NCBI GenBank assembly: GCA_963821525.1
Contig: CAWGED010000005.1
Location: forward strand, 864,001-928,000
Length of the DNA stretch: 64,000 bases
Source of the DNA: an uncultured Gemmatimonadales bacterium
Lineage (GTDB): Bacteria; Gemmatimonadota; Gemmatimonadetes; Gemmatimonadales; GWC2-71-9
Direction of reading: 5' to 3'
The notes beneath the pieces are model-generated. The model was given only the letters and a program-made list of their open reading frames with translations. It did not search any database and was not told the origin of the DNA. The position numbers were made by a program, and so were the translations under genes. Shown here piece by piece: positions 3,316 to 43,512 of the stretch (the first letter of the stretch is position 1; each line of letters begins with the position of its first letter).

Positions 3316-3346
3316 GAAGTGAGACGAGACGTGGGCCGTCGTTCTC

Positions 3347-4267: not shown

Positions 4268-4345
4268 TCCCTACTTGATTCGCGGTTGATAGCGTTTGAC
4301 CAGTTGATCGGTCGAACCGCTGTCCACTCGAACCTGGGGGCTCCC

Positions 4346-9839: not shown

Positions 9840-9842
9840 GTA

Positions 9843-9936
9843 ATTGCAGATTGACGATTGCTGATTGTCGATTGAAAATTGAACGGTAGGGATTAGCGGC
9901 TTTTCAATCGTCAATCGTCAATCAGCAATCAGCAAT
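9843..9936. repeat. Inverted heptamer tracts (ATTGNNN)6 / (NNNCAAT)5 able to form a long hairpin
   Basis: ATTGCAG ATTGACG ATTGCTG ATTGTCG ATTGAAA ATTGAAC ... TTTCAAT CGTCAAT CGTCAAT CAGCAAT CAGCAAT. Confidence 0.9.
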
Positions 9937-9948
9937 TATCTTTGCCCC

Positions 9949-19459: not shown

Positions 19460-20290
19460 ACGAACCGGTCCTCTATGACCGGGTCCAGGCTGCCGCTCGC
19501 ACCATCCGGGATCGATCCCCTCGCCGACCCGCCGCTGCGATCATTCTCGGCACCGGGCTCGGCGGTCTTGCCAAGGAAATCAAGGCAGAAGCCGTCATCC
19601 CCTACGAGGAAATCCCCGGGTTTCCCCTCTCGACCGTCGAGGCTCACGCCGGCCGCCTGATTCTCGGAAGCCTGAGCGGCAAGCCGGTCGTCGCCATGCA
19701 GGGACGGTTTCACCGGTACGAAGGGTATTCCCTCCAGCAGGTCACCTTTCCCGTTCGCGTCATGCACGCCCTCGGCGCCGAGACACTCGTGGTGTCCAAC
19801 GCCTGCGGAGGGATGCATCCGCTCTGGGCGCCGGGGGACCTCGATGCTGATCGCCGATCACATCAATCTCATCGGCGACAATCCGCTCATCGGTCCTCAC
19901 GACGAACGGCTCGGTCCCCGCTTCCCCGACATGTCGCAGCCGTATGATGAGAGCCTTCGCGCGATGGCGCGAAAGCTGGCGCTCGAGTTGGGCATCACGC
20001 TCAGGGAAGGCGTCTATGTCGCGGTGACCGGTCCAAACCTCGAAACCCGGGCGGAGTACCGGATGCTTCGCGCTATGGGCGCAGACGTCGTGGGGATGTC
20101 TACCGTGCCCGAGGTCATCGTGGCGGTGCAGGAGGGGATGAAGGTCCTGGGGATTTCGATCATCACCGACCAGTGCCTCCCGGACGCGCTGGAACCGGCG
20201 AGTCTCGAGAAGATCATCGCGGTTGCCAACCGGGCCGAACCTTCGCTGACCCGGCTGGTGTCCGGAGTGGTGGAGCGTCTGGCTGCATGA
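19456..20290 (+). CDS. punA: Purine-nucleoside phosphorylase (frameshift near 19845)
   Basis: [34 protein letters not shown]. Confidence 0.92.
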
Positions 20291-24419: not shown

Positions 24420-25410
24420 TTCACGGTCCTCAGCGAGTCGACCGAACGGCTCGACCGCTTCCTCGCCGATCAGCTCCAATTTTCCCGAACTCAGTCCGCC
24501 CGGCTCGATCGCCGCCGGCTCGGTTACCGTCGCCGGTAAGCCCGCGCGCGCGTCGCGCCTGCTGGAGCGCGGGGATCAGGTGGTAGTCACCTTCCCCGAT
24601 CAGGAGCCGCCCCGCACCATTCAGCCGGCTCAGATTCCTCTCTCGGTAGTCTTCGAAGACGAACACCTCGCCATCATCGACAAGCCCGCCGGGTTAGTGG
24701 TTCATCCCGCGCCGGGTCACTGGCAGGACACGCTGGTGAATGCCCTCGTGGCCCGCGGCACGACGCTCTCCAGCGGGGCCGAAGGGCGTCCCGGCATCGT
24801 GCATCGTCTCGACCGCGATACCTCGGGCCTCATGGTCGTTGCCAAGACCGAGCTGGCTCATCGCCGGCTCGGTGCGGCCCTCGCGGCCCGCCGGATCAAC
24901 CGGCACTATGCGGCGCTGGTCTGGGGACATCTCGACAGCGACCCGGTCGTGATCGAAGCACCGCTCGGGCGAAATCCCCGCGACCGCAAGCGCATGGCGG
25001 TCCTTCCCGAAGGCCGTCCCGCCCGAACCGACGCCTTTCCCGTTGCCCGACTTTCACTCGTGGACCTGGTGCGGCTCGAGCTGCATACCGGTCGCACTCA
25101 CCAGATCAGAGTTCATCTCGCTCACATCGGCCATCCCGTGGTGGGCGATCCGGTCTACACCGCGGGGGGTAGCCGCCGGATGTCGAGCGACCGGCCCGGT
25201 GCGGCGGCCCTGGAACGGCTCGCTCCCCGCCAGGCGCTGCACGCCGCCTACCTCGGTTTCCGCCATCCTGCGACCGGGGAAGCCCTCGAATTTGAGGCCG
25301 GATGGCCGGCCGACCTGCAGCCTTTGCTGGTTGCGGCGCTAGGGCCCGGAAATCCCGTTGTTAATTCGGATGCCCTTCGGTATCTTCGTTTCTTTAAAGC
25401 ACATGAGTGA
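24363..25410 (+). CDS. rluD: RluA/RluD-family pseudouridine synthase with S4 domain (frameshift near 24505)
   Basis: ERLDRFLA S4 domain, IDKPAGLVVHP, IVHRLDRDTSG, TGRTHQIRVH, QALHA. Confidence 0.92.
25358..25386 (+). promoter_or_regulatory. Putative sigma70-type promoter for the che-mgl cluster, inside the 3' end of rluD
   Basis: TTGTTA-N17-TATCTT in an AT-rich patch, 16 nt before the cheW ATG. Confidence 0.5.
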
Positions 25411-25839
25411 TGTTCAGAGGCTCAGACTTGTGGTCTTCCGGGTCGGCGAAATCATCTGCGCCGTGCCTGCGGCAATTGTTCGGGAGGTCATCGCCCAGCA
25501 GCCGGCAACCCGGATCCCTGGGGCCTCGGCCGAGGTGGACGGACTCTTCAACGTCCGCGGCACGCTTTTGACTGTCTTTGACGGTCGGCGGATCCTGGAA
25601 CGGCAGGGCTCGGCCGATCGAGGACGGGTCGGTCCTGGTAATCGAGACCAACGGTCGCACCGTCGGACTCGGAGTGGACGAGGTCCTGGATCTGGTGGAG
25701 GTGCCAGCGGACAGTCTCGATCAACGAGAGGCCCTCCCCGGAATAGATCCGCGCCTGGCCCGAGCGGTGGGCCGGGCTGGACGACCGGGTCTTTGCAGTG
25801 CTCGACACCGACGCGCTGCTCGCACCGCTTCTGACCTGA
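25403..25839 (+). CDS. cheW: Chemotaxis coupling protein CheW (frameshifted)
   Basis: LVVFRVG...VREVI...TRIPGA...GLFNVRG...VGLGVDEVLD. Confidence 0.85.
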
Positions 25840-25889
25840 CGAATCAGTCTTTTCAAAAGCCCAAACGCTGCTCGCAACCGGAGGATCGC

Positions 25890-26252
25890 GTGAGCCATAC
25901 GGTGCTGGTCTGCGATGATGCCATCTTCATGCGCACCATGATCTCGGACATCCTTGCCCAGGCGGGATTCGAGGTCGTGGGCGAGGCGGAGACGGGCGCG
26001 AGGCGGTGAGACGCTATCGCAAGCTCAAGCCCGACCTCGTCACGATGGACATCGTGATGCCGGACATGGGCGGCATCGATGCGGTACGCGAGATCTGCAA
26101 GGAGCGATCCCGACGCCAAGATCCTGATGTGCAGCGCGATGGGACAGCAGGCCCTCGTGGTCGAGGCGATCCAGGCGGGCGCCAAGGACTTCGTGGTGAA
26201 ACCGTTCCAGCCCTCCCGGGTGCTCGAGGCGGTACAGCGCGTGCTCGGCTGA
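25890..26252 (+). CDS. cheY: Single-domain response regulator CheY, Bacillus/Thermotoga-like (frameshifted)
   Basis: VLVCDDAIFMRTMI, PDLVTMDIVMP, MCSAMGQQALVVEAIQAGAKDFVVKPF; GGAGG RBS. Confidence 0.92.
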
Positions 26253-26256
26253 GTTC

Positions 26257-28123
26257 ATGGATCTATCGCGCTACGCCGCGCTCTTTCAGACGGAGAGCAG
26301 GGAACACCTGGGCAGTTGCGCTCAGGCCCTGCTGGAGTGGGAGCGCGACCTCAAGGCCACCGAGCCGGTCGTCACGGTCTTTCGCGGCATGCACACCTTC
26401 AAGGGCATGGCCGCGGCGATGGGGTTCAACCACCTCACCGAGCTGGCTCACCGCACCGAAACGCTGCTCGATGTGGTCCGGAGCGATCCCGGTTCCGCGT
26501 CGCGCGAGTTGCTGGACCTGCTCTTTCGAATCGTTGATGCGCTGGAAGCCGGGGTTCCAGAGGCGGTGTCCGGCGGCGACGCGAAGCTGGACTTCACGCC
26601 GCTGCTCGAGGAGCTCGACAATGCCTCGGCGCGCTTCGGCGCCGACCGGCAGCTGGGCCATTCCGGTGCGGGAGGATCGCCCGGCCCCGGTTGCGGCTGG
26701 AGGGCGGCTGGTGCGAGTCGTCATCCGCTCCGGTACGGCGATGCGCGGCGCTCGCGCGATGCTGGCGATCCGGAAGGCCGAGGCGCTGGGCAAGGTCAAC
26801 TCCATCCGGCCGCCGGCCAGCACGTTCGAGCAGGAGGAGTTCGACGGCAAGCTCTCCTTCCGTTTCGAGGGCAGGGCCAGCGACGCCTCGCTGATTGCCG
26901 CGGTGCAGTCCGCCGGGGACGTCGCCTCGGTCCAGGTGGGTGAGGAGACCGGCGGTCGACGAGCCGGGCCGCAAGGTCGAGCGCCGCCGCCAGATCCGGA
27001 TCGATCTCCGGCGGCTCGACGCGCTGATGAACCAGGTCGGCGAGCTGGTCGTCGCCAAGGGACGGCTCGAGCGAGCTCGCTGCCGTGAGCGACTCGCCGG
27101 ATCTCAAGGCGGTCGCCGCGCGCATCGGACGGGTGACCTCCGAGATGCACGGCGAGATCGTGCAGGCCCGGATGACTCCGGTGTGGCAGGTGTTCGATCG
27201 CTTCCCCCGGATGGTGCGGGACCTCTCGCGGCAGCTGGGCAAGCGGGTCGCGTTCGAGGTCGAGGGAGAAGAGATCGAGATGGATCGCGCGATCCTGGAC
27301 GAGATCGGGGATCCGCTGATTCACCTGCTGCGGAACGCGGTGGACCACGGCATCGAGTCCACCGCCGAGCGGAAGAAGCGCAACAAGCCGGCTGAAGGCC
27401 GGATCCTGTTAAGCGCGATCCGGGACCGGACCAGCGTCGCCATCCGGGTGAAGGACGACGGGCAGGGCATCGACCGGCAGAAGGTTCTCGCCAAGGCCGT
27501 GAAGGAAGGGCACGTCCCTTCGCGGCACCACGACCTTGACCGACGACCAGCTGCTCCGCGTACTGGGCCGCCCGGGCTTCAGCACCGCGCGCTCGGTTAC
27601 CGACGTGTCGGGCCGCGGGGTCGGCATGGATGCCGTGCTGTCCAAGGTCCGGGCGCTGGGAGGCTCGGTCGAGCTGGAAACGGCCGCGGGCGAGGGCTCG
27701 ACCTTCACGATGCGGCTCCCGCTGACGCTGGCGATCGTGCGGGCCCTGCTCGCTCGCGTAGGCGATGAGCGCTACGCGGTGCCACTCGCCGGGGTGGCCG
27801 AAACGGTGGAGTTCAACCCGGTGCTGGTCGCGTCGCTCGAGGGCAAGGAGGCGTTCGTGTTGCGCCAGGAGCTCCTGCCCACGGTGCGACTGCGGGAGCG
27901 GCTGGGGGTAATCGGCGCCCGGCCGGTCGGGAAGGCGCCGACCATCATTCTGCAGGTCGGAGAGCGCCGTTGCGCGCTGGTAGTTGATGCCCTGGTCGGG
28001 CAGCAGGAGATCGTGGTAGAGCCGTTCGATGCGCCGAAGGGGATGCTGCCGATTTTTACCGGTGCCACAATCCTGGGTGACGGCGTGCCGGCCCTGATTG
28101 TGGATCCGGCCGCCCTGGTCTGA
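26257..28123 (+). CDS. cheA: Chemotaxis histidine kinase CheA (frameshifted)
   Basis: P1 FRGMHTFKGMA; P2-like ARAMLAIRKAEALG...EEFDG; LDALMNQVGELV; HLLRNAVDHGIE; DDGQGID; VSGRGVGMD; C-terminal CheW-like P5. Confidence 0.95.
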
Positions 28124-28132
28124 GAGGCCCGC

Positions 28133-28754
28133 ATGGACGACGTACGCGAGTTGCATGAGCTGCAGCGCGACGCGCTCAGGGAAGTCGCCAACATCGGCGC
28201 CGGCCATGCCGCGACCGCCCTGTCCCAGCTCACCAATCGTACGATCATGATCAGCGTGCCCGAGGTGAACATCTCCCGGCTCGAAGAGGTGCCGGAGATC
28301 CTGGGGCAAGCCGACGACGTGGTGGCCGCCGTCCTGATGCACATGATGGGCGACCTCACCGGCCGTACGCTGGTCCTCTTCCCCGATCCCTCGGCCAAGG
28401 TGCTCTGCGACATACTGCTCCGCCGGAAGCTCGGCACCACCGAGACCTACGAGCGAGATGGAACAGTCGGGACTCAAGGAGGTAGGAAACATCCTGACCA
28501 GCGCCTACATGAACGCGCTGAGCGACTTCATGGGCATGATGCTGGTCCCGTCGGTTCCCAGCCTCGCCATCGATCTGGCGGGAGCCGTCCTGACCTCCAC
28601 CTACATGAATTTCGGCTACGACCGCGACTTCGTCTTCTGTGTCGAGACCCAGTTCCTGTTCGAGGATCCGGCACTCAAGCTCCGTGGTCACTTCCTGCTG
28701 TTGCCCGATCTCGCGTCGCTTCGGGCAATTTTCGACGCGATCCGCCTGAGCTGA
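28133..28754 (+). CDS. cheC: CheY-P phosphatase CheC (frameshift near 28455)
   Basis: Two ExxN sites: DALREVANIGAGHAATALS and LKEVGNILTSAY. Confidence 0.92.
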
Positions 28755-28761
28755 GGCAGCC

Positions 28762-31464
28762 GTGACGGGGCCGGCTCTGTCGGAACGGGACCTCGCCGTC
28801 ATCCGATCCTTCGCACGCCGCATCGATCCGTCCGATGCCGGCGCCCACAACAACCTCGGCGTCCTCTACTACCAGAAGGGCCTGACCGCCGAGGCCATCA
28901 GCTGTTTCCTGCGTGCGCTCGAGCTGGACCCCAGCATGCAGGTCGCCAAGGACAACCTCGAGATCGCCTACCACGCCACCGGCTACTACGACAAGCGGGT
29001 GGCGGAGCTGCGCGACCGGCTGGCCCGCGCATCCCGCAGGACCGGGACGCGCGCTGGGAGCTGGGCCGGACCTACGCCTCGCTGGGCCATTTCGAAGAGG
29101 CGATCGCCGAATTCGAGACCCTGCTCGCCCGGCAGCCGGACGACGTCGCCGGCGTTACTGCAGATCGGCCTGGCCGAGAAGGCACGGGGCGATCTGGACG
29201 CGGCCACCGACTGCCTTCGGCCAGGCGCGTCGCGCACGACCCGAGCGTCCGGTCGTCCTCTTCTACTTCGGCGAGGTCGCTCTACAACCGCGGCCTCAAC
29301 GAGCCGGCGCGCGCGGCGCTGGAGGAGGCCGTCGCCCGGAACCCCGACCACGCCGACGCCTACTACCTCCTGGCCTTCGTCTACGGCGACATGGGCGATC
29401 ACGAGAGGCCCGGGCCGCGACCAAGAAAGCGACCGCAGCTCAATCCCACCTTCGCCCGCGCCCAGAGCAATCTCTCGCTGAATCGCTAGCGCGGGCGGCG
29501 CGACGCTCCCGGGCCGCAGCAGATGCCGCGGCCCAAGGTCGAGTCGAGGGTGGGGCGCTCGCGCACTTCAACCTGGGACTCGCATTCCGGCAGAAGGGCT
29601 ACTACGTCGAGGCGTTGCGCGAGTACAAGCTGGCCCTCGAGGCGGGCGAGGATCCGCCGGCTGGTGCTCCAGGCGATGGCGGAGGTGCACCTGCTGCGGC
29701 GCGACGTCTCCGCGGCGCTGGAGCTGTACGCGGCGCTGGTCGCGCGAGGACCCCGAGTCACCCAAGCTGTGGAATGAGCGCGGGGTCTGTCTGCAGCATG
29801 CCGGAAGGCGCGACCGAGGCCGGTGCCGCGTACAACAGGCCGCAGTCAACATCGATCCCGACTACGCGCTGGCCTGGAACAACCTCGGGGTACTCCGTGG
29901 CCCAGAGACCCGAAGACGAAGAGGCGCTCGAGGCCTTCCACCGGGCGCTGATGATCCGCCCCGACCTCGTCGTGGCCCGGCTCAACCTCGCGCTGGCTAC
30001 TCTTCCATCGCCGCCGGCTCCAGCTGTCGCTGGAGGCGTATCGCCAGGTGCTGGAGACCACGCCGACCAATGCCGTCGCCTGGAACGGGGTCGGGCTGGT
30101 GCTGGTTGAGCTCAAGCGCTTCGAGGATGCGCGGAACGCGTTCGGCCGTGCGGTAGACGCCGATCCGGACAGCGCATCGGCGCACTACAACCTGAGCTTC
30201 GCGCTCAGCAATCTGGGCGACTTCGACGGCGCGCTCCGCGCGACCAAGCGGCGCGCTCGAGCTCGAGCCGTTCTACGTCGCGCAGAAGTATGTCCTGTCG
30301 ATCGATCTCCAGTACGAGAATCCGGACGATCTCCATCGTCCCCGAGATCTCGGCCGACGTGTCATCGGACCTGGCCGAGCCGATTTCGCATTCGACACCC
30401 GGCTGCTGGATCGCATCTTCGACGAGCTGCAGCCCGCCGCGAAGCCCGCGCCGGCCCCCTCAGTGGATGATCCACTCGCCCTGGCCGCCGATTTCGTGGC
30501 GAAGGGACTGCTCGAGCTGGCCACAGCCCACATCGACCGCGCGCTGCAGCAAGGGCGCACCCCGTGCCCGCGCCACCACGCTCATGGGGCAGGTGTTCGC
30601 CCGGCGTGGCCTCCACGGCGAGGCATTGGAGCGGTTCCGGGAGGCGCTGATGCTGGAGCCGGGCGATCCCGACGCCACCCTTGGTGAGGTCCGCGCACTG
30701 CTCGCGCTCGGCCGGTCCGCCGAAGCCGGCGAGCACGTCGAGGACCTGGTCACCATGATGCCGCGCGACGTGGAAGTTCTGGTCGAGCGCGGCCCGGGTG
30801 CGATTGGAAGGTGACCAGCCGGAATCCGCCGGCGAGCTGGTCCGGCGTGCCCAGCAGCTCGCGCCGGGACGGGCCGATCTCTTCCAGTTGCAGGCGAAGG
30901 TCTGCGGCAAGCTGGGCGATATCCCCGGTGCGGTCGAGGCCTGCCAGGTCGCGCTCCAGCTCGACGGCACGCTCGCGCAGGTCTGGCACGACCTGGGCCG
31001 ACTCGAGGAAGCCCGGGAGAACTGCCGTGGCGGCGAAAGGTCGCCTACGAGCGAGGCGCTCGACCTCCTGCCCACTTTCATGGAAGCCGCGCTGGCCCTG
31101 GCCGATCTGGTGCGCCGGAGCGAGTCCCCCGCGGCCGCGGTAGACATCCTGGTCGAGATGCTGATGACGGAGCCGTGGGACCTCGATGCGCTCGCTGCTG
31201 CTGGGCCGCTGCCTGCTGGATGACGGCCGGCCGGAGCGGTCGATCGAGGCGCTCCAGCGTCTGCTCAAGTTCGATCCCGACAACGAATCCGCGCTGTTCC
31301 ACCTGGGCGTGGCCCTGGCCCGCATGCGGCAGTACGCGGACGCGGTTCACGCGTGGGAGCGGGTGATCCAGATCGATCCCGGCGGGCCCTATGCCCAGGC
31401 GGCGCGCAGCCACGCGCGGTCGGCGCGAGACCTCAAGCATATCTTCGCGGCGGGAGCGGCCTGA
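28762..31464 (+). CDS. Large cytoplasmic TPR protein, about 900 aa (many frameshifts)
   Basis: Repeated TPR units across frames: AHNNLGVLYYQKG, AHFNLGLAFRQKG, AWNGVGLVL, AHYNLSFALSNLG, ALFHLGVALARM. Confidence 0.85.
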
Positions 31465-31467
31465 GTC

Positions 31468-32618
31468 ATGGCGATCGAAGGGCCGCTCAAGGAACTGAGC
31501 ATCCACGATGTCTGCCAGCTCCTTGACCTGAGCCGGAAGACCGGCATTCTCCGCGTCACCTCCGAGCTCCGGCAGAACGCGGGCACCGTCTTCTTCGAAG
31601 AGGGTGTCGTGGTCGGCGCCGAAATCCGCAGCAACCCTCATCCGCTGGGCCGCCTCCTCTACGCCGCGGGCAAGATCACCGAGGAAGAGCTCGCGCGCGC
31701 GAGGGGAGCACAGGCGGCGGGTGACGGCCGCAGGCTCGGCGAGATCCTGGTGAGCCAGAGCGCCATCTCGCCGCGCGAGCTCGCGCGTCACGTGAGGCAG
31801 CAGATCGAAGAAGTCGTGTTCGAGCTGATGGGCTGGTCGGAGGGATACTTCTCGTTCGAGGAGGGCAGAGGAGGGGAATGGCCCACCGAGGCCACGATCC
31901 GGATTCCCACCTCGCTCCTTCTGATGGAGGCGGCCCGCCGGATCGATGAGTGGTCCCGGATCGAAAAGAAGATCTCCCACCTCGGCATCGTGCCTCGCTT
32001 GGGGCAGGAGCCCGCCGCGGACGGTCCGCTCGATCTCTTGCCCACCGAATGGGAAGTCCTCTCAATCGTGGACGGGAACCGCACCATTCGAGACGTCGCG
32101 GCGACACTGGGCCGCTCCGAGTTCGACGTGGCCAAAACGGTCTTCGGCCTGGCCTCCGCCGGGACTCCTCATGCTGGAGGATCCGTCCCGCCGCGCTATT
32201 GAAGAAACCTCGGACGGCGACCTCGCGATGCTCATCGGCGAAGCGGACTCCCACATGGATCAGCAAGACGCCGACGCGGCAGTAGCCGTCGCGGAAGTGG
32301 CGGTGAGTCGCCATCCCGATCAGCCTCTGGCGTACCTCGCGTACGGGCGCGCGCTGCTCACGGCCCAGCGCTACGCCGAGGCCACCGATGCGCTGTGGTA
32401 TGCCGTCGAACTGGATCCGCTATCCACTCCAGGCACCGCCTGCTCGGGCTTGAGTCTGATTGCGATGGGCCGCTTCCAGGAGGCCTCGGAGGTGTGGGAC
32501 CGTTGGCGCCGGCTGGGGCCGATGGCGCCGCGAGGAGTCCGCTCAGCTGCCCGCGGTAGACCGCCTGCGGCAGGCCGCGCTCACGATCGACAACGCACTG
32601 CGAGGTTCCCGTGATTGA
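31468..32618 (+). CDS. DUF4388 (PATAN-like) protein with MshEN-like motif and C-terminal TPRs (frameshifted)
   Basis: MAIEGPLKELSIHDVCQLLDLSRKTGIL, WSEGYFSFE, LLMEAARRIDEW; TPR LAYLAYGRALL. Confidence 0.85.
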
Positions 32619-33439
32619 AGACATCCGGGCCCTCACCGCCCAATTGGCGGCGGACCCGACCAGTCTGGTCTTTCTTCGCCTGGGCGAAGCGCTCCGGGGG
32701 CGAGGGCCAGCTCGAGGCGGCGCAGAAGGTGGCGCTGACCGGGCTCAGCCGTTACCCGCACCTGCCCGACGCTCACGATCTCTACGCCCGCATCCTCGCC
32801 GACCGGCAGGACTACGCCAATGCGTTCGACGAGTGGGACATGGTCCTCCGCATCGCGCCCAACCACGTCGGCGCGAACAAGGGCATCGGCTTCCTCTACT
32901 ACCGGGCCGGCGATCGGGAGAATGCCATCCGGCATCTCCAGCTGGCTCTGTCGGCCGACCCCGGCGATGACGGGCTGCGTACCGCGATCGACCGGCTGGG
33001 TGGAGGCGGTGAGGTATGGGATGCCCCTGAAGCGGCGCCACCGGAGATTACCGAGCCCCTGCCACAGCGCAGTCCGCCTGCTCCCGATCCCTTCTTCGGC
33101 TTCGAAGGCAGTGTGAACCGGCTGCTCCTCGCGAGCGCGGATGGCCTGAGGCTGGGCGGCGGACTCGCCAGCACTGCCGGCGAGGATGTGAGCGAGGTCG
33201 CCGCGGCACTCGTATCCGGCGCCGCGCGCGAAGCGACCCGGGCGGCGAAGCTGCTCGACCTCGGCGAATGGCGCCACGTCACCGTCGAATGCGGAGAGCT
33301 GAGCTTCTGCCTGGTCCAGCCGACGTCGGATACCGGGCTGATCGCGGCGATGGACACGGCGCTTCCCGTCGGCCAGCTCCACTTCCTCGCCGAGCGGGCC
33401 AGCAAGGCCGCGACCTCCTGGCTGGAGCGGGTGCGATGA
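32611..33439 (+). CDS. TPR plus Roadblock/LC7 fusion protein (frameshift near 32700)
   Basis: SLVFLRLGEALR...TPRs; C-terminal LLLASADGLRL...AAALVSGAAREATRAAKLLDLGEWRHVTVEC roadblock pattern. Confidence 0.8.
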
Positions 33440-33788
33440 TGCGCGACTACAAGGCCCTGCTCGAGCCGCTCACCCGGCTGCGTGGTGTGCGTGGCGCCAT
33501 GGTCGTCGCGGCCGATGACGGTGTCGTCGTGGTGGACGCGTTGATGGATGGCATGAAAGGCAAGGCTCTCGCGGCCCTCGCTGCGGCCCTCGCCAGCCGG
33601 ATCGTGGATCTCGAGCTACCAGGGCCTCGTTCGGCCCCGCCAGGTTCATCCAGCTGCAGGCGGCGGAAGGCAGCCTGCTGCTGGTCCCCGCGTCGGAGGA
33701 GCTGCTCCTGGTGACGGTGACCGGCCGTGATGTCCCGCTGGGACTCACCCGGCTCGAGATGCTCAAGGCCGCGGAGCGAATGCGCTGA
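33436..33788 (+). CDS. Roadblock/LC7 protein, MglB/MglC-like (frameshifted)
   Basis: LRGVRGAMVVAADDGVVV...ALAALAA...; C-terminal LLLVTVTGRDVPLGLTRLEMLKAAERMR*. Confidence 0.8.
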
Positions 33789-34250
33789 TGCGGGCCTTGG
33801 AACCCTGGGTAGTCCGGCCACTTGCAGGACTTCGTGTCGGAATCATCCGCGCGATTGACCCTGCTCATGACGACGTCCGGCCAGGTGGTGGCGCAACACG
33901 GATTCACCGGAGCGCTCGACCTGATGTCGGCGGCGGCGCTGGGGGCTGCCATCATCTCGTCGTCGAGCGAAATCGCCCGGGTCATGGATTGGCCGCCCTT
34001 CCGGAATCTGGTGCATCAGGGCCAGCGGCAGGCGCATTATCTGGCCTGGTTCGACACTCCCAGAGGGCGCTGGATTGCGTTCGTGGTCTTCGGCACGGAA
34101 ACCAATCTGGGCCTGGTGCAAGTCTTCTTCGAGCAAATGGTGGAAGAGCTTGCGGCCGCTGCTCCGGTAGAGTCGGCCCCCAAGGAAGTGCTTGCTGTGG
34201 ATTTCGAGCGGGAACTCAACGCGAGCCTGCGGGCTCTTTTCGGACGCTAG
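33788..34250 (+). CDS. mglB: Roadblock/LC7 MglB-type GAP (frameshift near 33820)
   Basis: LTLLMTTSGQVVAQHG...AAALGAAII...FRNLVHQG...VVFGTETNLGLVQ; lies immediately upstream of mglA. Confidence 0.8.
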
Positions 34251-34256
34251 GATTTC

Positions 34257-34859
34257 ATGTCGCTGGTCAACTTCACGACGCGTGAGATCACCTGCAAGAT
34301 CGTCTACTACGGACCGGGGCGGTCCGGGAAGACGACCAACTTGCAGTACATCTACGGCCGGGTTCCCGACTCGCGCCGGGGCCGCATGGTTTCTCTCGCG
34401 ACCCAGACCGACCGTACTCTCTTCTTCGATTTCCTGCCCCTCGACCTCGGCGTCATCTCCGGGTTCACAACCCGGTTCCAGCTCTATACCGTCCCGGGAC
34501 AGGTCTACTACAATGCCACGCGGAAGCTGGTGCTCCAGGGGACCGACGGTGTGGTCTTCGTGGCGGACAGCCAGGCCCGGCGATTGGACGACAATCTGGA
34601 GAGCCTGCAGAATCTGCAGGCCAACCTGCTGGCGCAGGGAGTGGAGGTGCGCCAGTTCCCCATGGTGCTCCAGTACAACAAGCAGGACCTGCCGCAGGAC
34701 CTGGTCCTCACGTCGAGCGATATGGACGAATCGCTCAATTTCTTCGGGTTGAAGAGCTTCCCCGCCGATGCGGTGCGCGGGACAGGAGTGTTCGAGACCC
34801 TGAAGGGGATTTCAGAGCTGGTGCTCAAGCGCCTGGCCGCAGGGAGTTCGGTGACGTGA
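34257..34859 (+). CDS. mglA: MglA-family small Ras-like GTPase
   Basis: [41 protein letters not shown]. Confidence 0.95.
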
Positions 34860-36888
34860 GTACTCCGCTGAACCCGCGGTACCGCTTCGACAACTACGTT
34901 GTGGGCGCAGCGAACAAGCTTGCCGCGACCGCCGCCCGCGCCGTGGCCGAGTCCCGGGCGCGGTCTACAACCCGCTCTTCGTCTACGCCGGATCCGGGTT
35001 GGGCAAGACCCACCTGCTGATGGCGATCGGGCACGCCGCCGCAGGAAATCAATCCGCAGGTGACGGTCGAGTATCTCACCCTCGACGACTTCGTCGAAGC
35101 CTTCCATACGGCCATCGCCGCAGGACAGGGAGACGCCTACCGCCGCCGCTACACCGAAGTCGGCGTGCTGCTGGTGGACGATGTGCAGTTCCTCACTCAC
35201 CGGCGCGAAATGCAGGCGGAGCTGCTCCGCCTCACCAACACGATGCTGTCCTCCGGCCGGCAAATCGTGCTCTCGAGCGATCGCCCGCCCAACGAGATCG
35301 AGGCGCTGGATGAGCGCCTGATCCAGCGTTTCGCCGGCGGGCTCGTGATCGACATCTCCGCACCCGATTTCGAAACCCGGGTCGCCATTCTTCGGAGACA
35401 GGCGGAGGAGCGCAAGGCGCAGGTTGACGCCAGCGTGATCGAGACCGTCGCACAACTGCCGCTCGGCAGCGTGCGGGAGCTGATCGGCGCTCTGAACCGG
35501 TTGATCGCGTTCCAGGCGGTGAGCGACAAGCCGCTGGACCCGCAGCAGGCCAGGGCAGTGCTGGGTCGAGTTGGTGTCGTGAAGCAGCCGAGTCCTGCTG
35601 CCGCGGAGGGACCTCCGAGTCCCGCTCAATCATGCCAGCCTGGAGAGTCACCTTCCCCTCGAACCGGAAGCCGTTCCGCCGCCCGAGGAGGAACCGGTGC
35701 TCTCGGGCGATGAGTTCGGCTCGTTCCTCTCCGAGATTCAGTCCGCGGTGGCGCGACAGGTCGAGCCGTGGCGGGTGAGGGTCAACGAGGCGATCCTCTT
35801 CTGGGACGGCGAAGGCTACCGGGTAGACCGGCTGCGCCAGATTCTTGGCCGAGGCATCGCCGGAGAACCCGGAAGCGGCGCTTGGCGCCTACATCGAAGA
35901 CATCGAGCGGCTCAAGCTGCTGCAGGCCGAGATGCAGGAGCTCGATCCCAGCGCCGCGGGCACCGCGCTGTTTCGCGATCCGGACCGGCTCTCCGAAGCA
36001 CTCACCGAAACCGATCGAGCACGCCAGGGCGCGAGCCCTCCGCCGGGACCCTCGCCGCTCTGGACGATGGAATCGTTCATCGAGTCGGCGGGCAACCGGA
36101 TGTCGGTCCGCTCGGCTCAGGCTGTCGTCGCCGAACCCGGAGCGACTTACAACCCGCTGGTAATCACCGGTAGCAGCGGAGTGGGGAAGACCCACCTGCT
36201 GCATGCGATCGGCAATGCCCTCGCCGCCAAGCCCAGGGAAGTCGTCGCCTGCCTCGGCACCCAGGACTTCGTCGATGATCTCATCAAGGCCATCGACAAA
36301 GACCGGGTGAACTGGTGGCGGATCCGCTATCGCCGCATCACCGCGCTGCTCCTCGACGACATCCACCTGTTGTCGGGGAAGGAGCGCTCGCAGGAAGAGT
36401 TGTTCTGGCTCTTCAATCTCCTGCACGAGGGCGGCAAGCAGATGGTCTTCACCTCGGCCCTGCCGCTGCAGGAGATCGAGGGCCTCGAACCACGTCTGCA
36501 GACCAGGCTGAACGGTGGGCTGGTGCTGGAACTCCCCGCGCCCGATCGGGAAGTCCGGGCCGCGATCATCGCCCGTCTGCTCGTCGAGCGAAAGCTGCCC
36601 GCCGACCAGGAGCTGGCGGACTATCTGGCGGGCAGGCCCGCCGACTCGGTGCGTAGTCTGCCCGAGATGCTCCAGCGGGTGCTGCACGAGGCGGATGAGC
36701 GTCACGGCAAGGTGAGTGCCGCCCTCGCGCGTGAAGTGCTGGAGGGCAGTCCTGCTGCCCCGTTGCGGCGCAGCACCGGCTATCGCACCAGCGGCGTGCT
36801 GTCGCCCACGGCGGGGCTCCGCAGCCGGGAGAAGATGGTGTGGGACTGGCCATCGCTGACCGATCGTGTGATTGAGGATCTGCGCTGA
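34856..36888 (+). CDS. Tandem DnaA/Hda-type AAA+ domain protein lacking DnaA domains I and IV (frameshifted)
   Basis: Module 1: [59 protein letters not shown]. Module 2: [45 protein letters not shown]. Confidence 0.88.
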
Positions 36889-38505
36889 TGGCCATCAAGG
36901 GCAGCCTCAAAGAGGCGAGTCTCCCGGACGTTCTTCAGCTCCTCGCGCTGGGGAAGAAGAGTGGCTGCCTGGCCGTGGCTGACCGGCAGAACTTCGGCTA
37001 CGTGTATTTCGACGAGGGACGGATCTGCTACGCGTCCATCGTGAACCGGCGCGACCGGATCGGCGACCTCCTGGTGAAGAACGGGCGGGTCAGTCCGGAG
37101 CAGCTGGAGCAGGCGATCGCGCTGCAGGAGCAACGCGCGGGACAGCAAGCTGGGCGAGTTGCTGGTTGAAATCAGCGCGGTGACGCGAAAAGACCTCGAA
37201 GACTACATGCGGATCCAGATCGAGGAGGCGGTCTACTATCTCTTCACCTGGACCCAGGGGACTTTCAACTTCGAGGCCGGCATGCGGCCGGATCAGGACT
37301 TCCTGGTCCGGATCAACCCCGAGTCGCTGCTCCTCGAGGGCGCGCGCCGGGTCGACGAGTGGAGTCTCATCGAAAAGAAGATCCCCAGCTTCGACCTCAT
37401 CTTCGCCGTCGATCGGGAGCACGTCTCCGACACTGACGTGGAGCTCGAACAGGCACAGGAACGCCTCCTCGGTCTCATCGACGGGCAGCGCGACGTGCAG
37501 GATCTGATCGAGGAGTCGGGCCTGGTCGAGTTCGAGGTGGGCAAGGCACTGTACGGCCTGGTGACGGCGGGATTCGTGCGTCGGGTGGGAACTTCGGCGA
37601 CTCCGGCGCAGCCCCAGGTGAACGAGACCCGGGTCGAGGAGCACCGGAACCTCGGCGTCGCCTTTTACAAGACCGGCATGCTCGAAGAGGCCTCGCGGGA
37701 ATTCCGCAGAGTCGCCGATCTGCGCGCCGCCGACCCCAGCGCTCCGTTCTACCTCGGCCTCATCGCGCTGCGTCAGGCTCGGTGGGAAGACGCGGTCGAA
37801 GCGCTGACGGCGACGCTTGAGAAGGCCGGCTCTCGGCCCGCCGTGCTCTACAACCTGGCCTTTGCTCTCGAGCAGCTCGGCCGGTTGCCCGAGGCGGAGA
37901 CCGCGTACGCCGACGCGGTGAGCAAGTCGCGCGACGATGCCCGGCTGATGCTGGGATGGGGAGTCGTGGCGCTCAAGCGTAACGATTCGGAAGTCGCCAC
38001 CAACCGTCTGGCCCGGGCTCGAGAGCTCTGGGGTGAACGCCCCGTTCCGCCTACCTGGTATTGGGCGATGGCGCTCGCCCTCGCGGGCCAGGCCGATCTC
38101 AACGAAGCGCTCAAGATCGCGAAAGAAGGCGTCGCCGCGTTCCCCTCGGACGCCGTGCTCCGCAACAACCTCGCGGTCCTCCTGGAAATGAGCGGGGATT
38201 TGCCCGGCGCCGAAATGCTTCTGCGCGGGGCCTTGTCCGAGGACCCGACGCTTCCGCAGATCTCGAAGAACCTGGGCGACTTGTTCTACCGTGCGGGCCG
38301 CTACGACGACGCGTTCGAAGCCTACGAGCGCGCCGCCAAGCTGAGCCCCGAGTTGGGCGACGACCTGTACTTCAAGCTGGGCAACATCGCCTTCAAGCGA
38401 CGCGACCGGGAGCGTGCCCGGGTCTGCTGGCAGCGGGTGACCGAGCTCAATCCGGCCCATCAGCTCGCGCGGGCCAACCTCGACACTCTGGAAACCAGCG
38501 CGTGA
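36888..38505 (+). CDS. DUF4388 protein with MshEN-like motifs and C-terminal TPRs (frameshift near 37145)
   Basis: [47 protein letters not shown]; several TPRs (EHRNLGVAFYKTG, VLYNLAFALEQLG, ISKNLGDLFYRAG). Confidence 0.88.
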
Positions 38506-39326
38506 CCGCAGAGCAGGATGCCGCTTTCACCGCTCTTGCGCAGCGCATCGCGGGGCGGGCCGGACTCGACGTCGGAGCTTACAAGGATCGCTGCCTCCGG
38601 CGCCGGATCGCCGTTCGCATGCGCGCCTGCGGCGTCCACACCTACTCGGACTATCTCGGCGAGCTCGACCGGCGTCCCGATGAGATCGACCGGCTCCTCG
38701 ATACCATCACCATCAACGTCACCAAGTTCTACCGCAACCCGGAGACCTGGTCCTGGCTCGAGCGAAACCTGCTGCAGGCGCTGGTCTCCGCCCGGCGGGG
38801 ACGGGTACGGGTCTGGAGCGCAGGCTGCGCTTCGGGTGAGGAACCCTATACCATCGCGATGGTGCTCGCTCAGGCCTGCGCCGCAGCCGGTCGCGAGGAC
38901 TGGATCGACGATGTCCGGATCGATGCTACCGATATCGACCGGGAGTCTCTCGACCGGGCGCGCGCCGCCCGGTACCACGAGCGGGTCTTCAGCGAGACGC
39001 CGCCTGCCTTGGTGAAGCGATACTGCCGTCAGATCGCGCCCGAAGAGTTCGAAGTGGATTCCCGTCTTCGTGCCGTCGTCGAGATCCGCCGGCTGGACCT
39101 GCTGCGGGAGTCCCCCGCCTCGCCCCAGTACGATCTCATCTTTTGCCGCAACGTGGTCATCTATTTCGATCGCCGGACCCAGGAACGTCTGATGGGCACC
39201 TTCTTCGACGCCCTGGTTCCCGGTGGCCACCTGATTCTGGGGAAAGTGGAGACCATCTTCGGACCGATCCGCGACCAGATCACTCTGCTCGAGCCTCGTG
39301 AACGCGTCTACCGGAAGCCGGTCTAG
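38502..39326 (+). CDS. cheR: Protein-glutamate O-methyltransferase CheR
   Basis: TINVTKFYRN, VWSAGCASGEEPYTIAM, ATDID, YDLIFCRNVVIYFD. Confidence 0.95.
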   Translation: MTAEQDAAFTALAQRIAGRAGLDVGAYKDRCLRRRIAVRMRACGVHTYSDYLGELDRRPDEIDRLLDTITINVTKFYRNPETWSWLERNLLQALVSARRGRVRVWSAGCASGEEPYTIAMVLAQACAAAGREDWIDDVRIDATDIDRESLDRARAARYHERVFSETPPALVKRYCRQIAPEEFEVDSRLRAVVEIRRLDLLRESPASPQYDLIFCRNVVIYFDRRTQERLMGTFFDALVPGGHLILGKVETIFGPIRDQITLLEPRERVYRKPV

Positions 39327-39813
39327 ATGGCGGGCGAGCAGATGGTGCGGGTTGCCGAGATCAAGGCCGCTACGGGAGACCAGATCCTGTGTACCCTCGG
39401 GCTGGGCAGTTGCGTCGGCATCGCCCTCTACGATTCGACCGCCCGGGTCGGCGGGCTCGCGCACATTCTTCTTCCTTCGCTCTCGCTGAGCCGTAACAGT
39501 CAGGCTCCAGGCCGGTTCCCGCAGTCTGCAGTGCCCGCACTCATCGCGGAGATGTCGGCGCTTGGTGCCGATCGGCGCCGACTCTTTGCGCGCCTGGTGG
39601 GAGGGGCGAGCATGTTCGCCAACCTCAACGCGCCCGGCTCCATCCAGATGGGCGACCGCAACGTCGTGGCGTGTCGCGAGGTGCTGAGCGCCCACGGCAT
39701 TCCGGTTGTGGCCGAGGCGGTGGGCGGAGGGCCAGGGGCGTTCGATGTGGTTTCACACCGCCGATGGGAAAATCGAGGTGCGTTCGGTCGGGAGCCCGGT
39801 CTATGAGCTTTGA
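39327..39813 (+). CDS. cheD: Chemoreceptor glutamine deamidase CheD (frameshift near 3' end)
   Basis: TLGLGSCVGIALYD...GGLAHILLP, LVGGASMF, MGDRNV. Confidence 0.93.
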
Positions 39814-40872
39814 CCTGCCCTCGGTCCTGGTGGTGGATGACAGCGCGTTCTTCCGGCGCATGATCTCCGAGATCGTCGCCGGTTCCGGCGCAGTTCCGCG
39901 TGGTGGGCACCGCGGCCAATGGAATGGAAGCGGTGCAGAAAGTCCACGAGCTTCACCCCGATCTGGTCACGATGGATCTGGAGATGCCTCAGCTCGACGG
40001 ACTCGGCGCGATCGGGTACATCATGTCGGAAGCCCCACGGCCCATCGTGGTCGTGAGCTCGCACGCGGGCGCCGGCACGTACCGGCTCGATCCGGGCTCT
40101 CGAGCTCGGTGCCGTCGAATTGGTGGCGAAGGAGGACGAGCAGGGCAGGGCGTCGGCGTTGCGAATCGCCCCCCGGCTGCTCGACGCGCTGCGTGCCGCT
40201 CGCGCGGCCGATATCGGGCGCCTGCCGGTTCTCGCCCGGCCGGCTACGGGTCGAGGGGCGGGCTCACGTCAGGGCGCCCAACGAGGCGCGCCGCACGCTC
40301 GCCATTGCCGCCTCAACCGGCGGCCCTCGGGCTCTGGCCGAATTGTTGCCCCAGATTGACCACCGGACAGGAAGCGGCGGTGCTGATTGTGCAACACATG
40401 CCGCGGGGATTCACCCGAAGCCTTGCCGAGCGGCTGGACTCGCAAAGCCGGCTCGCGGTGGTCGAGGCGGAGCAGGACGCTCCCGTTCGCGCCGATACCG
40501 CATACGTGGCTCCCGGCGATTATCATATGCGAATAACCTCCACCGCGACCGGCCTCAGAATCGTTCTCGATCAGGGGCCGACAATCTGGGGAGTTCGCCC
40601 GGCGGCTGATCCGCTGTTCTATTCGGTCGCCGAGTGTTTCGGTGCGGCCGCGGTCGGCGTGGTGCTGACCGGGCTGGGACGGGATGGAGCAGCCGGACTT
40701 CGTGCAATGCACGATGCCGGCGGCATCGGCATCGCGCAGGATCGGGAAACCGCCACGATTTACGGGATGCCCGGCGCCGCCCTGGCCGGCGGAGGAGCCG
40801 ACTACGTTCTTGGGCTCGGTCAGATCGCGGAGCACGCGAACCAGGATTCTCCGAGAAAGGCCGCGGCGGTGA
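39803..40872 (+). CDS. cheB: Chemotaxis methylesterase CheB, REC plus esterase (frameshifted)
   Basis: VLVVDDSAFFR, PDLVTMDLEMP; catalytic ASTGG, QHMP and LTGLGRDG. Confidence 0.93.
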
Positions 40873-41298
40873 AGCAAGCATTGCTCCTGGTCTCTGCCGG
40901 AGGGCGGCAACTCGCCTTCCGGATGGCCGACGTGATCGAGGTGCAGGAGGGTGGAGAGGTGCACCGGGTTCCTGCCGGCGCTCCTGCGCTCGCGCGGAGT
41001 CACCACGGTTCGGGGCCGGTTGGTGCCGCAGGTGCACCTCGGCGCGTTGCTCGACCAGGGTACCTATCCCCCGGAACCCTGTGCGACCGTCGTCGTGGCG
41101 ACCACCGACACCGGTTTGGTCGCGTTCGAAGTGGATGACGCGGACGCGCACCCCGAGATCGAGATTCTTCCGGCTCCGGAAGACGAGAGACTCTCGTGGG
41201 TAAGTGGGGTGCTGCGTCAGCAAGAAAGGTGGGTGCCCGTCTTGAATCTGACAGTCCTGGAGGAACGGCTGCGGACCAGCGAGGTAAGCCACGCATGA
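40869..41298 (+). CDS. cheW: Divergent CheW-domain protein (frameshifted)
   Basis: LLVSAGGRQLAFRMADVIEV...RGVTTVRGRLVPQVHL...VAFEVDD...VPVLNL. Confidence 0.75.
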
Positions 41299-41755
41299 CC
41301 GACGACGAACTGCAATTCGTGATCTTTCAGGTCGGTTCCCAGGCTCTGGCGCTCAGCATCTTTCAGGTCGAGCGCATTCTTCGCTGGGAGCAGCCCGCGG
41401 CGTTGCCCAACGCCCCGGCGTTCCTCGAGGGCGTGCTGCCCTACGGCGACGGCGTGGTCGCCGTGGTGGATCTCCGCAAGCGCCTCGACGCTACCGGCGA
41501 CGCAGCAGGAGGAAACCCGGGTCATGGTGCTGGAGCTGGAAGATCAGCGGGTCGGCATCGTCGTCGATGCGGTGCAGCGAGGTGGTCAGGGTCGATGCGC
41601 GTACCATCACCCCGCCGCCGCCCATGGTGCGGGGCCTGGCCGCCAAGTACATCACCGGCATCCTCAGCCAGCCGGACCGGACGGTCGTTGTGCTCAACGC
41701 GGGCAAGCTCCTCAACTCGAAGGAACGGCTCGCCCTGACCGGAGCGTTGGCCTGA
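41295..41755 (+). CDS. cheW: CheW (frameshifted)
   Basis: QFVIFQVG...VERIL...LPNAPAFLEGV...VGIVVDAV...YITGI. Confidence 0.85.
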
Positions 41756-41759
41756 GCTC

Positions 41760-42632
41760 ATGACCGATTCGCTGATTGCGACGCTGCGCAGCCAGTTCCA
41801 GGCGATCTCGCTCCGGCTCGACCAGGCCGGCTCCAATGCGGAGCGAGAGGCGGCCAAGCGGGAAATCATCGCCTACTTCAAGAAGGTGGATTCCACACTG
41901 GGCGAGCTCACCCAGTTGAAGGAAGACATCCGCGGACTGGTTGACCGCTACAAGCAGCTCCAGGCGTCGACCGATACCGCCCAGGCGCCGCAGTTCACCG
42001 GCGCCCGGCCGATGGTGCATGCCGACCACATCGGCGCCTCGACCTTCATCGAAAAGGGATGGAGCCTCATCTCCCTCGGTGATTACGCCGGGGCGATTCA
42101 GTCGCTCGACAAGGCGCTCCAGCTTTCACCGGCGGATGTCCAGGCCCAGTCGCTGCTCGGCTGGGCCCAGATGCTCCACGAGGATTACGACGACGCGCTG
42201 GCCACCTTCTCGAAAGTCTTGATGAAGGAGCCGGCGAATTCCCTGGCCCGCATCAACGTGGGCTACATCTGCCTCAAGAAGCGGATCTTCGGAGAGGCGA
42301 TCGAGCACCTGTCCAAGGCCATCCGGCTCGACAATGACCGGAAAGCCACGCTGTACGCCCACTACTATCTCGGGCTGGTCTACCTCGAGCGGGAGATGTT
42401 CGAGGACGCCCAGACCTTCTTTCAGAAGACCCTCAACCTCGGTCCCAATCTGATCGAGGCCTACTACGAGCTGGGCCGCGCTTCCTGGTTCATGGGAGAC
42501 AAGACCGCCGCTAGCGGCGCCTGGGAAGAGGGCTTCAAGGCCAACAAGTTCAATCCGTGGGGCAAACGCTGTAAGGAAATGCTCGATCTCGTCGCCTCCG
42601 GAGGAGAGCCGCCGCGCACGTCCTCCGCCTGA
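41760..42632 (+). CDS. Coiled-coil plus TPR protein
   Basis: N-terminal helical/coiled-coil segment followed by about five TPRs (ARINVGYICLKK, AHYYLGLVYLER, AYYELGRA). Confidence 0.85.
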   Translation: MTDSLIATLRSQFQAISLRLDQAGSNAEREAAKREIIAYFKKVDSTLGELTQLKEDIRGLVDRYKQLQASTDTAQAPQFTGARPMVHADHIGASTFIEKGWSLISLGDYAGAIQSLDKALQLSPADVQAQSLLGWAQMLHEDYDDALATFSKVLMKEPANSLARINVGYICLKKRIFGEAIEHLSKAIRLDNDRKATLYAHYYLGLVYLEREMFEDAQTFFQKTLNLGPNLIEAYYELGRASWFMGDKTAASGAWEEGFKANKFNPWGKRCKEMLDLVASGGEPPRTSSA

Positions 42633-42643: not shown

Positions 42644-43512
42644 GTGCAGGCCGCAGACTCGCTGACTCACGCCATGGTCGGTCGGGTCAGAGTCGTGGCT
42701 CGGGAGAAAGATCTCGCTCTCGGCATTCGCCTCGCCGAATCGGTGGACCGCCCGTTCGCCTGGCCGGGCCTCGGCCGCCGCGCACCGCCTCCCTTTACTC
42801 TGATTCTGGCTGCCGACTCGGCGACCATGTCCCGCATCGCCAGCGGTCGTGCGCCGGGCTGGGGAGCCGGGATCACTCTGCCTTCGGCTCGCACCATCGT
42901 TCTGCGCAGCGACCTCGGCGGTCTCGACCAGACGCTGCGCCATGAAGTGGCCCATCTGGCCCTGCACGATGCAGTCCCGGGGAGAGTCCCACTCTGGTTC
43001 GATGAGGGATATGCCTCGCTGGCTTCGGGAGAGTTCGAGCGGCTGATCACGCTCCAGCTCAACCTTTCGGTGGTTGCGAGGGCGGCTGCCGTCGCTTCGG
43101 GAGCTCGATAGTGACCTGAGGGGTTCGGCCCGCACCGCCGATGCCGCCTATGGTCTCGCCGCTTCAGCGGTGGCCGAGATCGCGCGGCATCCCGCGCCGG
43201 GTGGGCTGGAGCGATTGTTCAGCCGTATGGCCGCAGGCGATGATTTCGAGCAGAGTCTCATCGCGGCAACCGGGCTGACCCTCCGACAGATTCGAGAAGT
43301 CGTGGCAGGCAGGCGTTCGCCGGCGTTACGGTTTCATCGCCTGGTTGCTCGCGGGCGGCATTTGGGCTGTGGTGGCGGCTGTCCTTGGTGTCCTCGTATG
43401 GCTGCGCCGCCGCAGCGACCGACCCCGAAGGCTGGCCCTGGACCAGGGCTGGGAGATCGCTCCCCCCGATCCGCCGCCTCCGCCCGTTGACCCGGTCGAT
43501 CCGAAGCAGTAA
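42644..43512 (+). CDS. Peptidase MA-like metallohydrolase with a C-terminal TM (frameshifted; start uncertain)
   Basis: LRHEVAHL...VPLWFDEGYA motif; C-terminal hydrophobic helix. Confidence 0.75.

Follow-up and report, generated by a model that had tools for sequence, protein, structure and literature searches.

In Myxococcus xanthus, the Frz chemosensory pathway works with the polarity proteins MglA, MglB, MglC, RomR and SgmX, but even there the route from the chemosensory (Che) proteins to the small GTPase MglA is only partly resolved, and the genes are scattered. When examining a 64,000-nucleotide stretch of DNA from an uncultured Gemmatimonadales bacterium (contig CAWGED010000005.1, positions 864,001 to 928,000; hereafter the window), we observed a candidate parts list for such a route in a single operon, 18 genes in one direction (+ strand, 25403..42632) in which a split che gene set encloses an MglA/MglB block together with an ATPase related to the replication initiator DnaA and two DUF4388 (PATAN) proteins, DUF4388a and DUF4388b. 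The operon is real and conserved and, as a whole, apparently undescribed; no account of it was found in the literature searched, which did not cover subscription journals. It is chemosensory-, polarity- and pilus-like in character and is not a Frz system. Our preferred reading, held with moderate confidence, is that it encodes a pole signalling hub for type IV pili with an optional chemosensory input.

The likeness to the Myxococcus module consists of a chemosensory pathway, a group 1 MglA, an MglB-like protein with extra Roadblock proteins, a large TPR protein and a likely pilus output. However, in the description given in part of PMC3945109, FrzE has a receiver domain and lacks P2, whereas the CheA encoded here has P2, lacks a receiver and is accompanied by CheC and CheD; the Myxococcus mglA is distant from its partner genes (PMC4316618, in part), unlike the single operon seen here; and the described module has neither a DnaA-like ATPase nor a PATAN-MshEN hub, while the operon MglA is a more distant paralog. 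The actinobacterial conservons (CvnABCD) likewise combine a sensor kinase, a Roadblock protein and an MglA-family GTPase in one operon (PMC4316618, in part), but theirs is a group 2 GTPase with a simple histidine kinase, without a Che pathway, MshEN or an AAA+ protein. The F1-class systems (Thermotoga maritima, Myxococcus Dif, archaeal Che with CheF) supply the nearest solved Che chains and share CheC and CheD, but the operon has no flagellar output in most carriers, has no CheF and is interleaved with a GTPase module. In the cyanobacterial PatA-type (PATAN-REC) regulators of type IV pili, PATAN is also an output domain downstream of a chemosensory system, whereas here PATAN is combined with an MshEN insert and TPRs, and CheY, a protein of its own, provides the receiver. 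Finally, group 1 MglA genes beside PATAN genes were described by Wuichet and Sogaard-Andersen (2014; PMC4316618, in part), whose supplement lists GAU_1409 of the cultured species Gemmatimonas aurantiaca as PATAN>MglA>-PATAN> and GAU_1115 as MglB>MglA>. A first, sequence-only reading of the window had proposed that the system is undescribed; this holds for the whole operon but not for the tabulated PATAN-MglA-PATAN core. In the searched part of that supplement (all but one file), 'DnaA' has 0 matches, 'Che' occurs only in a species name, and the che flanks, the ATPase and the TPR genes are not noted.

The genes were delineated by Pfam searches on 43 frame segments and by tblastn with orthologs from a clean locus of the same genus (L031), which served as the working reference for gene models because the window is rich in indels. 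The features are as follows.

25403..25839, + strand: the first cheW of three, with a frameshift in the window and an overlap with rluD (Pfam CheW, tblastn)
25890..26252, + strand: cheY, a single receiver domain, nearest solved relative 1TMY (Pfam)
26257..28123, + strand: cheA with Hpt, P2, dimerisation, HATPase and one CheW domain, without a receiver (Pfam)
28133..28754, + strand: cheC phosphatase with both ExxN-type motifs (Pfam, residue check)
28762..31464, + strand: large TPR protein (892 residues in L031), likened to SgmX by analogy alone (Pfam)
31468..32618, + strand: DUF4388a, PATAN with degenerate MshEN insert, winged helix and TPR (PF14332; NF053729)
32614..33439, + strand: TPR-Roadblock fusion (Pfam)
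33436..33788, + strand: small Roadblock/LC7 protein of 116 residues (PF03259, E 6e-9 on the clean ortholog)
33788..34250, + strand: MglB-like Roadblock protein whose C-terminal tail resembles a helix (E 4e-8 with solved MglB chains)
34257..34859, + strand: MglA paralog with G1, Arg53/Thr54, Gln82 and G4 intact (sequence comparison)
34856..36888, + strand: tandem DnaA-type AAA+ protein (AAA1, linker, helical domain, AAA2, tail) without initiator domains I and IV (Pfam, profiles, fold match)
35703..35760, + strand: acidic amphipathic helix motif (EFxxFL), kept where the ATPase domains are deleted (ortholog comparison)
36820..36888, + strand: C-terminal tail (EKxVWxWP...R.IEE) abutting the DUF4388b start (ortholog comparison)
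36888..38505, + strand: DUF4388b, PATAN with tandem MshEN motif, winged helix and TPR, the least dispensable gene (Pfam, profiles, model)
38502..39326, + strand: cheR (Pfam)
39327..39813, + strand: cheD (Pfam, residue check)
39803..40872, + strand: cheB, receiver and methylesterase, start approximate (Pfam, tblastn)
40869..41298, + strand: cheW (second), divergent, often lost (Pfam, tblastn)
41295..41755, + strand: cheW (third) (Pfam, tblastn)
41760..42632, + strand: TPR protein with an N-terminal helical region, which stays with either block in most loci (Pfam)
42644..43512, + strand: HExxH protein, usually the next gene, membership in the operon unsure (HExxH in 27/27 orthologs)

Pfam and tblastn thus bear out the set of about 18 co-oriented, mostly abutting or overlapping genes of the first reading, 18 in all, and their order, cheW-cheY-cheA-cheC-TPR(892 aa)-DUF4388/TPR-TPR/Roadblock-Roadblock-mglB-mglA-tandem DnaA-type AAA+-DUF4388/TPR-cheR-cheD-cheB-cheW-cheW-TPR, as well as its remark that the stretch includes no receptor, flagellar or pilus gene (none within 25403..42632). 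In L031, all 19 of 19 junctions from rluD through the downstream gene span -11 to +49 bp, those at the two che/mgl borders being +7 and -4 bp. The window aligns with L031 at 90.6% identity over 17,248 columns with 66 gap openings and 69 gap bases; frameshifts hit most genes of the window, and the same breaks are absent from L031. The gaps being nearly all single-base, these frameshifts are best read as assembly errors. In the one metatranscriptome searched, 5% of words matched, the contigs mixed organisms across all 30 bins, and neither a transcript nor co-transcription was visible.

The gene string is not due to chance because relatives keep its order. Among 20 genomes with long contigs, drawn from 41 close relatives, the eight-gene inner block and the last TPR gene are in order in 20/20, and cheW-Y-A-C precedes the inner block in 19/20. 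A sample of 141 genomes of the phylum yielded operon-type MglA in 90, at a cut-off that missed degenerate copies (genus g37) and took in one non-operon copy (G138), CheC in 92 and both in 84; in 76 of these 84, a distance of 4.5-6.3 kb separates mglA from cheC on the same strand, and the remaining 8 have mglA <6 kb from a contig start. Anchored on DUF4388b, at least 80 named loci are found; of the 80 listed, 32 are too short for the upstream order to be read; with the full 10 kb upstream flank, cheA-cheC through the ATPase is found in 47/48. The three sets come from one collection and overlap. Of the 80, 79 bear Gemmatimonad- titles, and since the listing ends within Gemmatimonadota, it is informative for that phylum only; the ATPase protein clusters are mostly from Gemmatimonadota. 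Some families are without or nearly without the system (f6, 0/15; f9, 0/13; f7, 1/12).

Beyond the phylum, seven metagenome contigs (L151-L157, read from the large TPR gene on) have the same order as far as each extends; they encode 58-61% relatives of a protein that NCBI assigns to Ca. Edwardsbacteria. In L154 the order is TPR-DUF4388a-TPR/Roadblock-Roadblock-mglB-mglA-single-domain DnaA-like-DUF4388b-cheR-D-B-TPR-cheW, followed by two receptors, a weak cheW-like gene and a kinase-like gene. Since the same interleaved order recurs in a distant lineage, the arrangement is, on the compared sequences, old, and its version in the Edwardsbacteria-type lineage includes receptors. In the same locus, an AAA/ABC-type ATPase gene and a partner gene of foreign appearance stand between the large TPR gene and DUF4388a (2474-4626), and the Ser/Thr-kinase-like gene (19562-21274) directly follows the receptors and the cheW-like gene.

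A survey of 20 further loci, picked for unusual patterns, shows that natural deletions already rank the parts of the system. In two genera (G017, G134, G074, G117), both che blocks are cleanly gone, there is no CheA match and the inner block is kept; the che-less loci L045 and L056-L058 retain the whole Mgl block. Conversely, G096 and G098 have lost the large TPR protein, DUF4388a, all Roadblock proteins and MglA and keep Che, DUF4388b and the last TPR protein, and the Mgl-less loci L053 and L054 retain Che and DUF4388b. Four loci lack all Roadblock proteins, in two MglA lacks Arg53/Thr54, and three further genomes (reduced loci L158-L160) have little beyond the ATPase and DUF4388b. Even the AAA+ domains are lost in 5 loci of 3 genera, where an open reading frame of 60-75 residues with the EFxxFL helix and the tryptophan tail is left against the DUF4388b start; two copies of this mini-protein differ by 7 synonymous and 0 non-synonymous codons. 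The tail motif lies directly upstream of DUF4388b in 124/127 loci (111 by pattern, 13 by eye), the remaining three being the low-GC loci L071 and L073, with a stand-alone DUF4388b-like gene, and one that was not resolved.

As either block may disappear without the other, what the two have in common is the pair of DUF4388b and the DnaA-like motifs, not MglA. This pair is the core of the system, and Che and Mgl are each optional, given that the pair or its motifs persist in the deletions, that the tail adjoins DUF4388b and that a clean in-frame ATPase-DUF4388b fusion exists (P0156, a cluster of 4). Three other fusions (P0273, P0272, P0138) were read as frameshift artefacts and discarded. One locus is minimal (L059 of G136, 9691-13733), mglA-mini-DUF4388b-cheR-TPR with an orphan cheR, one receptor and no CheA; a short tandem repeat separates its mini-open reading frame from DUF4388b.

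In the ATPase, a helical domain is flanked by two folds of the DnaA domain III type (fold match at a root-mean-square deviation of 1.4 Å). In the first AAA+ domain, Walker A and B and the residues that we assign, by comparison with DnaA, to sensor I, the arginine finger and sensor II are kept in 28-30/30; in the second, the presumed sensor I-type residue is lost. Like DnaA and Hda, it has the AAA+ domain III fold and motifs, but it differs from both in its tandem copies (a single one in some lineages), in the absence of domains I and IV, in the dispensability of its ATPase domains and in its fixed partner, DUF4388b. Hda has a clamp-binding motif, an N-terminal peptide ahead of a single AAA+ domain, whereas the protein described here is tandem and begins at domain III. 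Initiator domain I and the DNA-binding domain IV are absent from it, the DnaA profile being covered at positions 102-339 of 437 only, and a normal dnaA is present elsewhere; by its domain content, then, the ATPase is not a replication initiator. It might still modulate true DnaA or the divisome, with MglA marking the pole, so that the operon would serve asymmetric division or replication timing, as is suggested by its core-genome setting between yggS-divIVA-ileS-lspA-rluD upstream and the rsmH-ftsI-mur-ftsA-ftsZ (dcw) cluster downstream and by the retained first-domain motifs and fold. We consider this unlikely: the two ATPase domains may be missing where the motifs and DUF4388b are retained, whole families do without the operon, the protein lacks a DNA-binding domain, and a normal dnaA exists elsewhere. 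A likeness of the linker to the FliM docking peptide was also considered and rejected, since it is confined to L031 and che-less genomes retain the helix.

Cyclic di-GMP (c-di-GMP) motifs had escaped the first reading. DUF4388b scores 49.4 bits with NF053729 against a cut-off of 38 and has the tandem 24-residue MshEN motif RLGxx..QxxxxxRLG..Q (consensus in PMC5013675, in part); DUF4388a is borderline, at 38.1 bits against the same cut-off, and has lost the first Arg. A model of DUF4388b residues 1-236 (pLDDT 90) comprises PATAN, an MshEN hairpin pair and a winged helix, the MshEN part matching 5HTL with a Z-score of 10.9, and the protein is accordingly predicted to be an MshEN-type c-di-GMP receptor. 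The PATAN core had no listed fold match within the search with this model, no search being made with the core alone. The winged helix matches the CheF-related 7OD9 with a Z-score of 6.0, within the generic range. Its best fold matches (residues 160-236), to GATOR1 subunits (Foldseek E 0.04; Z-scores of 9.7 and 9.4 over ~72 residues), were not taken as homology and may be generic, curious as they are beside Roadblock proteins and a small GTPase.

The Che set is, by domain and residue comparison, Thermotoga/Dif-like and unlike Frz, in agreement with the first reading, which had set it apart from the Frz class: according to Pfam, CheA has P2 and no receiver, like DifE rather than FrzE, and CheC and CheD are present. 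The phospho-site residues of CheY are invariant in 32/32 orthologs, as are the His and N-box of CheA in 26/26. The nearest solved chains of CheY, CheC, CheA and one receptor are, respectively, 1TMY, 1XKR, 1B3Q/3JA6 and 2CH7, which we take to be T. maritima F1/44H proteins. Of the receptors, one was aligned, and it matches 2CH7 without gaps over the C-terminal arm; with P2 in CheA, CheC and CheD, this fits the F1/Dif type with its 44-heptad receptors. Dif controls exopolysaccharide and has the gene order cheW-cheY-cheA-cheC. In an alternative reading, the Che set and the c-di-GMP hub would control exopolysaccharide, adhesion or secretion at the pole, with pili as an input or a bystander. The domain architecture of CheA (compare PMC3945109, in part), the gapless receptor arm and the MshEN motifs agree with such an output, as do proteins of other genomes that join carboxypeptidase-regulatory-like domains to a near paralog of the N-terminal part of DUF4388b. 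Nonetheless this reading is rather improbable, as MglA, the three Roadblock proteins and the PilT counts given below would be left unexplained and the locus has no polysaccharide genes. The fusions themselves (P0095, P0264 and ~55 others, 950-1500 residues), possibly an envelope-spanning output, were not found in the window genome (G000).

The operon MglA is homologous to M. xanthus MglA (E 6e-73) and has the features of group 1 (G1, Arg53/Thr54, Gln82, NKxD); among orthologs, Arg53 is present in 34/36 and Gln82 in 36/36. At least two MglA matches were found in 39/41 close relatives, and a copy linked to recR, overlooked in the first reading, is closer to Myxococcus MglA (295 bits, versus 248 for the operon copy). 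On this comparison, the operon MglA is a paralog of the recR-linked MglA and not the ortholog of M. xanthus MglA; recR-mglB-mglA is presumably the expected context of the M. xanthus-type protein. In the window genome this second mglB-mglA pair lies directly 3' of recR (G000:C5:647516-648638, L171), with an insertion near the MglA C-terminus. The Roadblock profile matches are generic, with no chain named MglC among the 46 listed, and the large TPR protein has generic TPR matches only.

Receptors, noted by the first reading to be missing from the locus, are encoded elsewhere, with 5 matches in the window genome, all outside the operon. Among the 41 relatives, receptors are found in 40, CheA in 40, FliG in 7 and PilT in all 41, and 26 have a single CheA match and no FliG; neither FliG nor FliM was matched in the window genome (81% complete) or in G001 (98%). 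In 9 flagellated genomes, a second CheA is present in 6, and in 5 cases its contig also bears fliG or fliM. Among the 3 genomes without a second CheA, the FliM of two lacks the N-terminal CheY-docking peptide (PMC9126983, in part) and that of one (G037) keeps a variant, which speaks against an exclusively non-flagellar role; this comparison of FliM N-termini left out G006, G010 and G016. An output other than flagella is thus supported by these gene contents for most carriers. Two flagellated genomes (L172, L175) combine a FliM without the docking peptide with no flagellar CheA match, so that their flagella possibly lack chemotactic control.

An alternative is that the Che pathway and the polarity module merely share a transcript and act separately, CheY serving the flagellum, where one exists, or an unlinked target. 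Either block can be cleanly lost, both Mgl-less genomes that keep Che are flagellated, and G037 has flagella, one CheA match and a docking-type FliM peptide; yet in those two Mgl-less genomes another CheA is encoded next to the flagellar genes, and their che string still contains DUF4388b and the mini-protein. The interleaved order, moreover, is found again in a distant lineage, and this Che set occurs without FliG in 26/41. Mere co-location is about as unlikely as a role in division.

The reading as a type IV pilus hub is the best one because the PilT-count pattern agrees with two findings on related proteins, the binding of PATAN to PilB1/PilC in Synechocystis (10.1101/2021.06.11.447907, in part) and the recruitment of the TPR protein SgmX for pili by MglA (PMC11580455, in part). 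In a 61-genome sample of the class, at least three PilT matches are present in 21/22 genomes with DUF4388b and in 0/39 without it; within the order, genomes that have lost the system mostly have fewer (G073, 1; G113, 1; G115, 2), and the Mgl- or ATPase-reduced G096, G098, G079 and G136 have 2 each. The window genome encodes pilB (with its own c-di-GMP motif)-pilT-pilC, and a PilQ-like secretin below the cut-off. Of the three outputs named by the first reading, polarity thus gains indirect support, in the form of pilus polarity; asymmetric division draws only on the dcw-cluster neighbourhood.

Several observations weigh against the hub. The PilT pattern reflects few independent losses, PilT persists in 35/39 system-less genomes, G109 has 3 PilT matches without DUF4388b, G078 has 2 with the system, and genome reduction could remove both the system and PilT copies. 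No pilus gene lies within the operon. The independent loss of the blocks also fits two pathways merely on one transcript; several loci are without all three Roadblock proteins or have an MglA without Arg53/Thr54; the MshEN insert is deleted in 4/38 DUF4388b orthologs, the strict first motif being present in 24/38; and the flagellated G037 shows only the operon CheA and a FliM that keeps a docking-type peptide.

As a mechanism for the pilus hub, we propose that the DnaA-like protein would be bound to DUF4388b by its two short motifs, giving a core complex to which its AAA+ domains may contribute a nucleotide-dependent oligomer or remodelling step, with no part in replication initiation. DUF4388b would bind c-di-GMP via its MshEN insert and contact the pilus motor (PilB/PilC), as cyanobacterial PATAN does, while the operon MglA, its Roadblock partners and the large TPR protein would set the site of hub activity, like MglA/MglB/SgmX in Myxococcus. 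The Thermotoga/Dif-type Che pathway, with receptors encoded elsewhere, would bias the hub through phosphorylated CheY (CheY~P). For its target, DUF4388b and the last TPR protein are the likeliest candidates because loci without the Mgl block retain them alongside Che. A complex prediction for CheY with DUF4388b(1-184) and the L053 mini-protein scored 0.02 against a mark of 0.32, in a run without controls. Che and Mgl would then converge on a common scaffold rather than form a fixed linear chain. For the Che-to-small-GTPase circuit of the sequence-only reading, the conserved order, the operon-like spacing and the intact catalytic residues all speak, but the blocks are lost separately, and we infer, rather than observe, both a direct Che-to-MglA link and the wiring from CheY onward.

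A bolder version is conceivable though doubtful: an initiator-type AAA+ protein turned signalling ATPase and a c-di-GMP-binding PATAN scaffold would form a hub to which CheY~P binds directly, perhaps at the winged helix in the way that CheF receives archaeal CheY, and which gates the MglA/Roadblock switch. Several deep phyla would then share another, more ancient path by which chemoreceptors reach a Ras-like polarity GTPase. The least probable use of the operon is contact-dependent predation or cell-cell attack, for which one may cite MglA, a TPR protein and RomR in Bdellovibrio (MglA with RomR in predation: PMC4316618, in part), the combination of MglA, TPR and c-di-GMP and the multiple PilT paralogs; the locus has no effector, Tad or secretion genes, and nothing examined points to predation.

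The pilus hub predicts a pilus-based, c-di-GMP-gated surface behaviour in an abundant phylum, the carriers being widespread, little-studied bacteria of soil and water, and gives a testable function to PATAN-MshEN proteins and a non-replication role to a DnaA-family ATPase.

Some minor observations concern the rest of the genome and the surroundings of the operon, the GC content of which is unremarkable. The window genome has a second small che cluster (G000:C19:975000-982000, L166) of cheA, cheW, a receptor, a cheR-like gene and a receiver, with a CheA match in 5/5 genomes of the genus, and a GldF/GldG-like ABC transporter gene adjoins a receptor gene on another contig (L163 7086-9593, G000:C14). 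In the window, the diadenylate cyclase gene cdaA (14960-15754) follows ftsH-folP, the HExxH metallopeptidase-like gene starts 11 bp past the last TPR gene, and a further TPR gene (44441-45106) stands immediately before the rsmH/dcw cluster, at the same place as in relatives.

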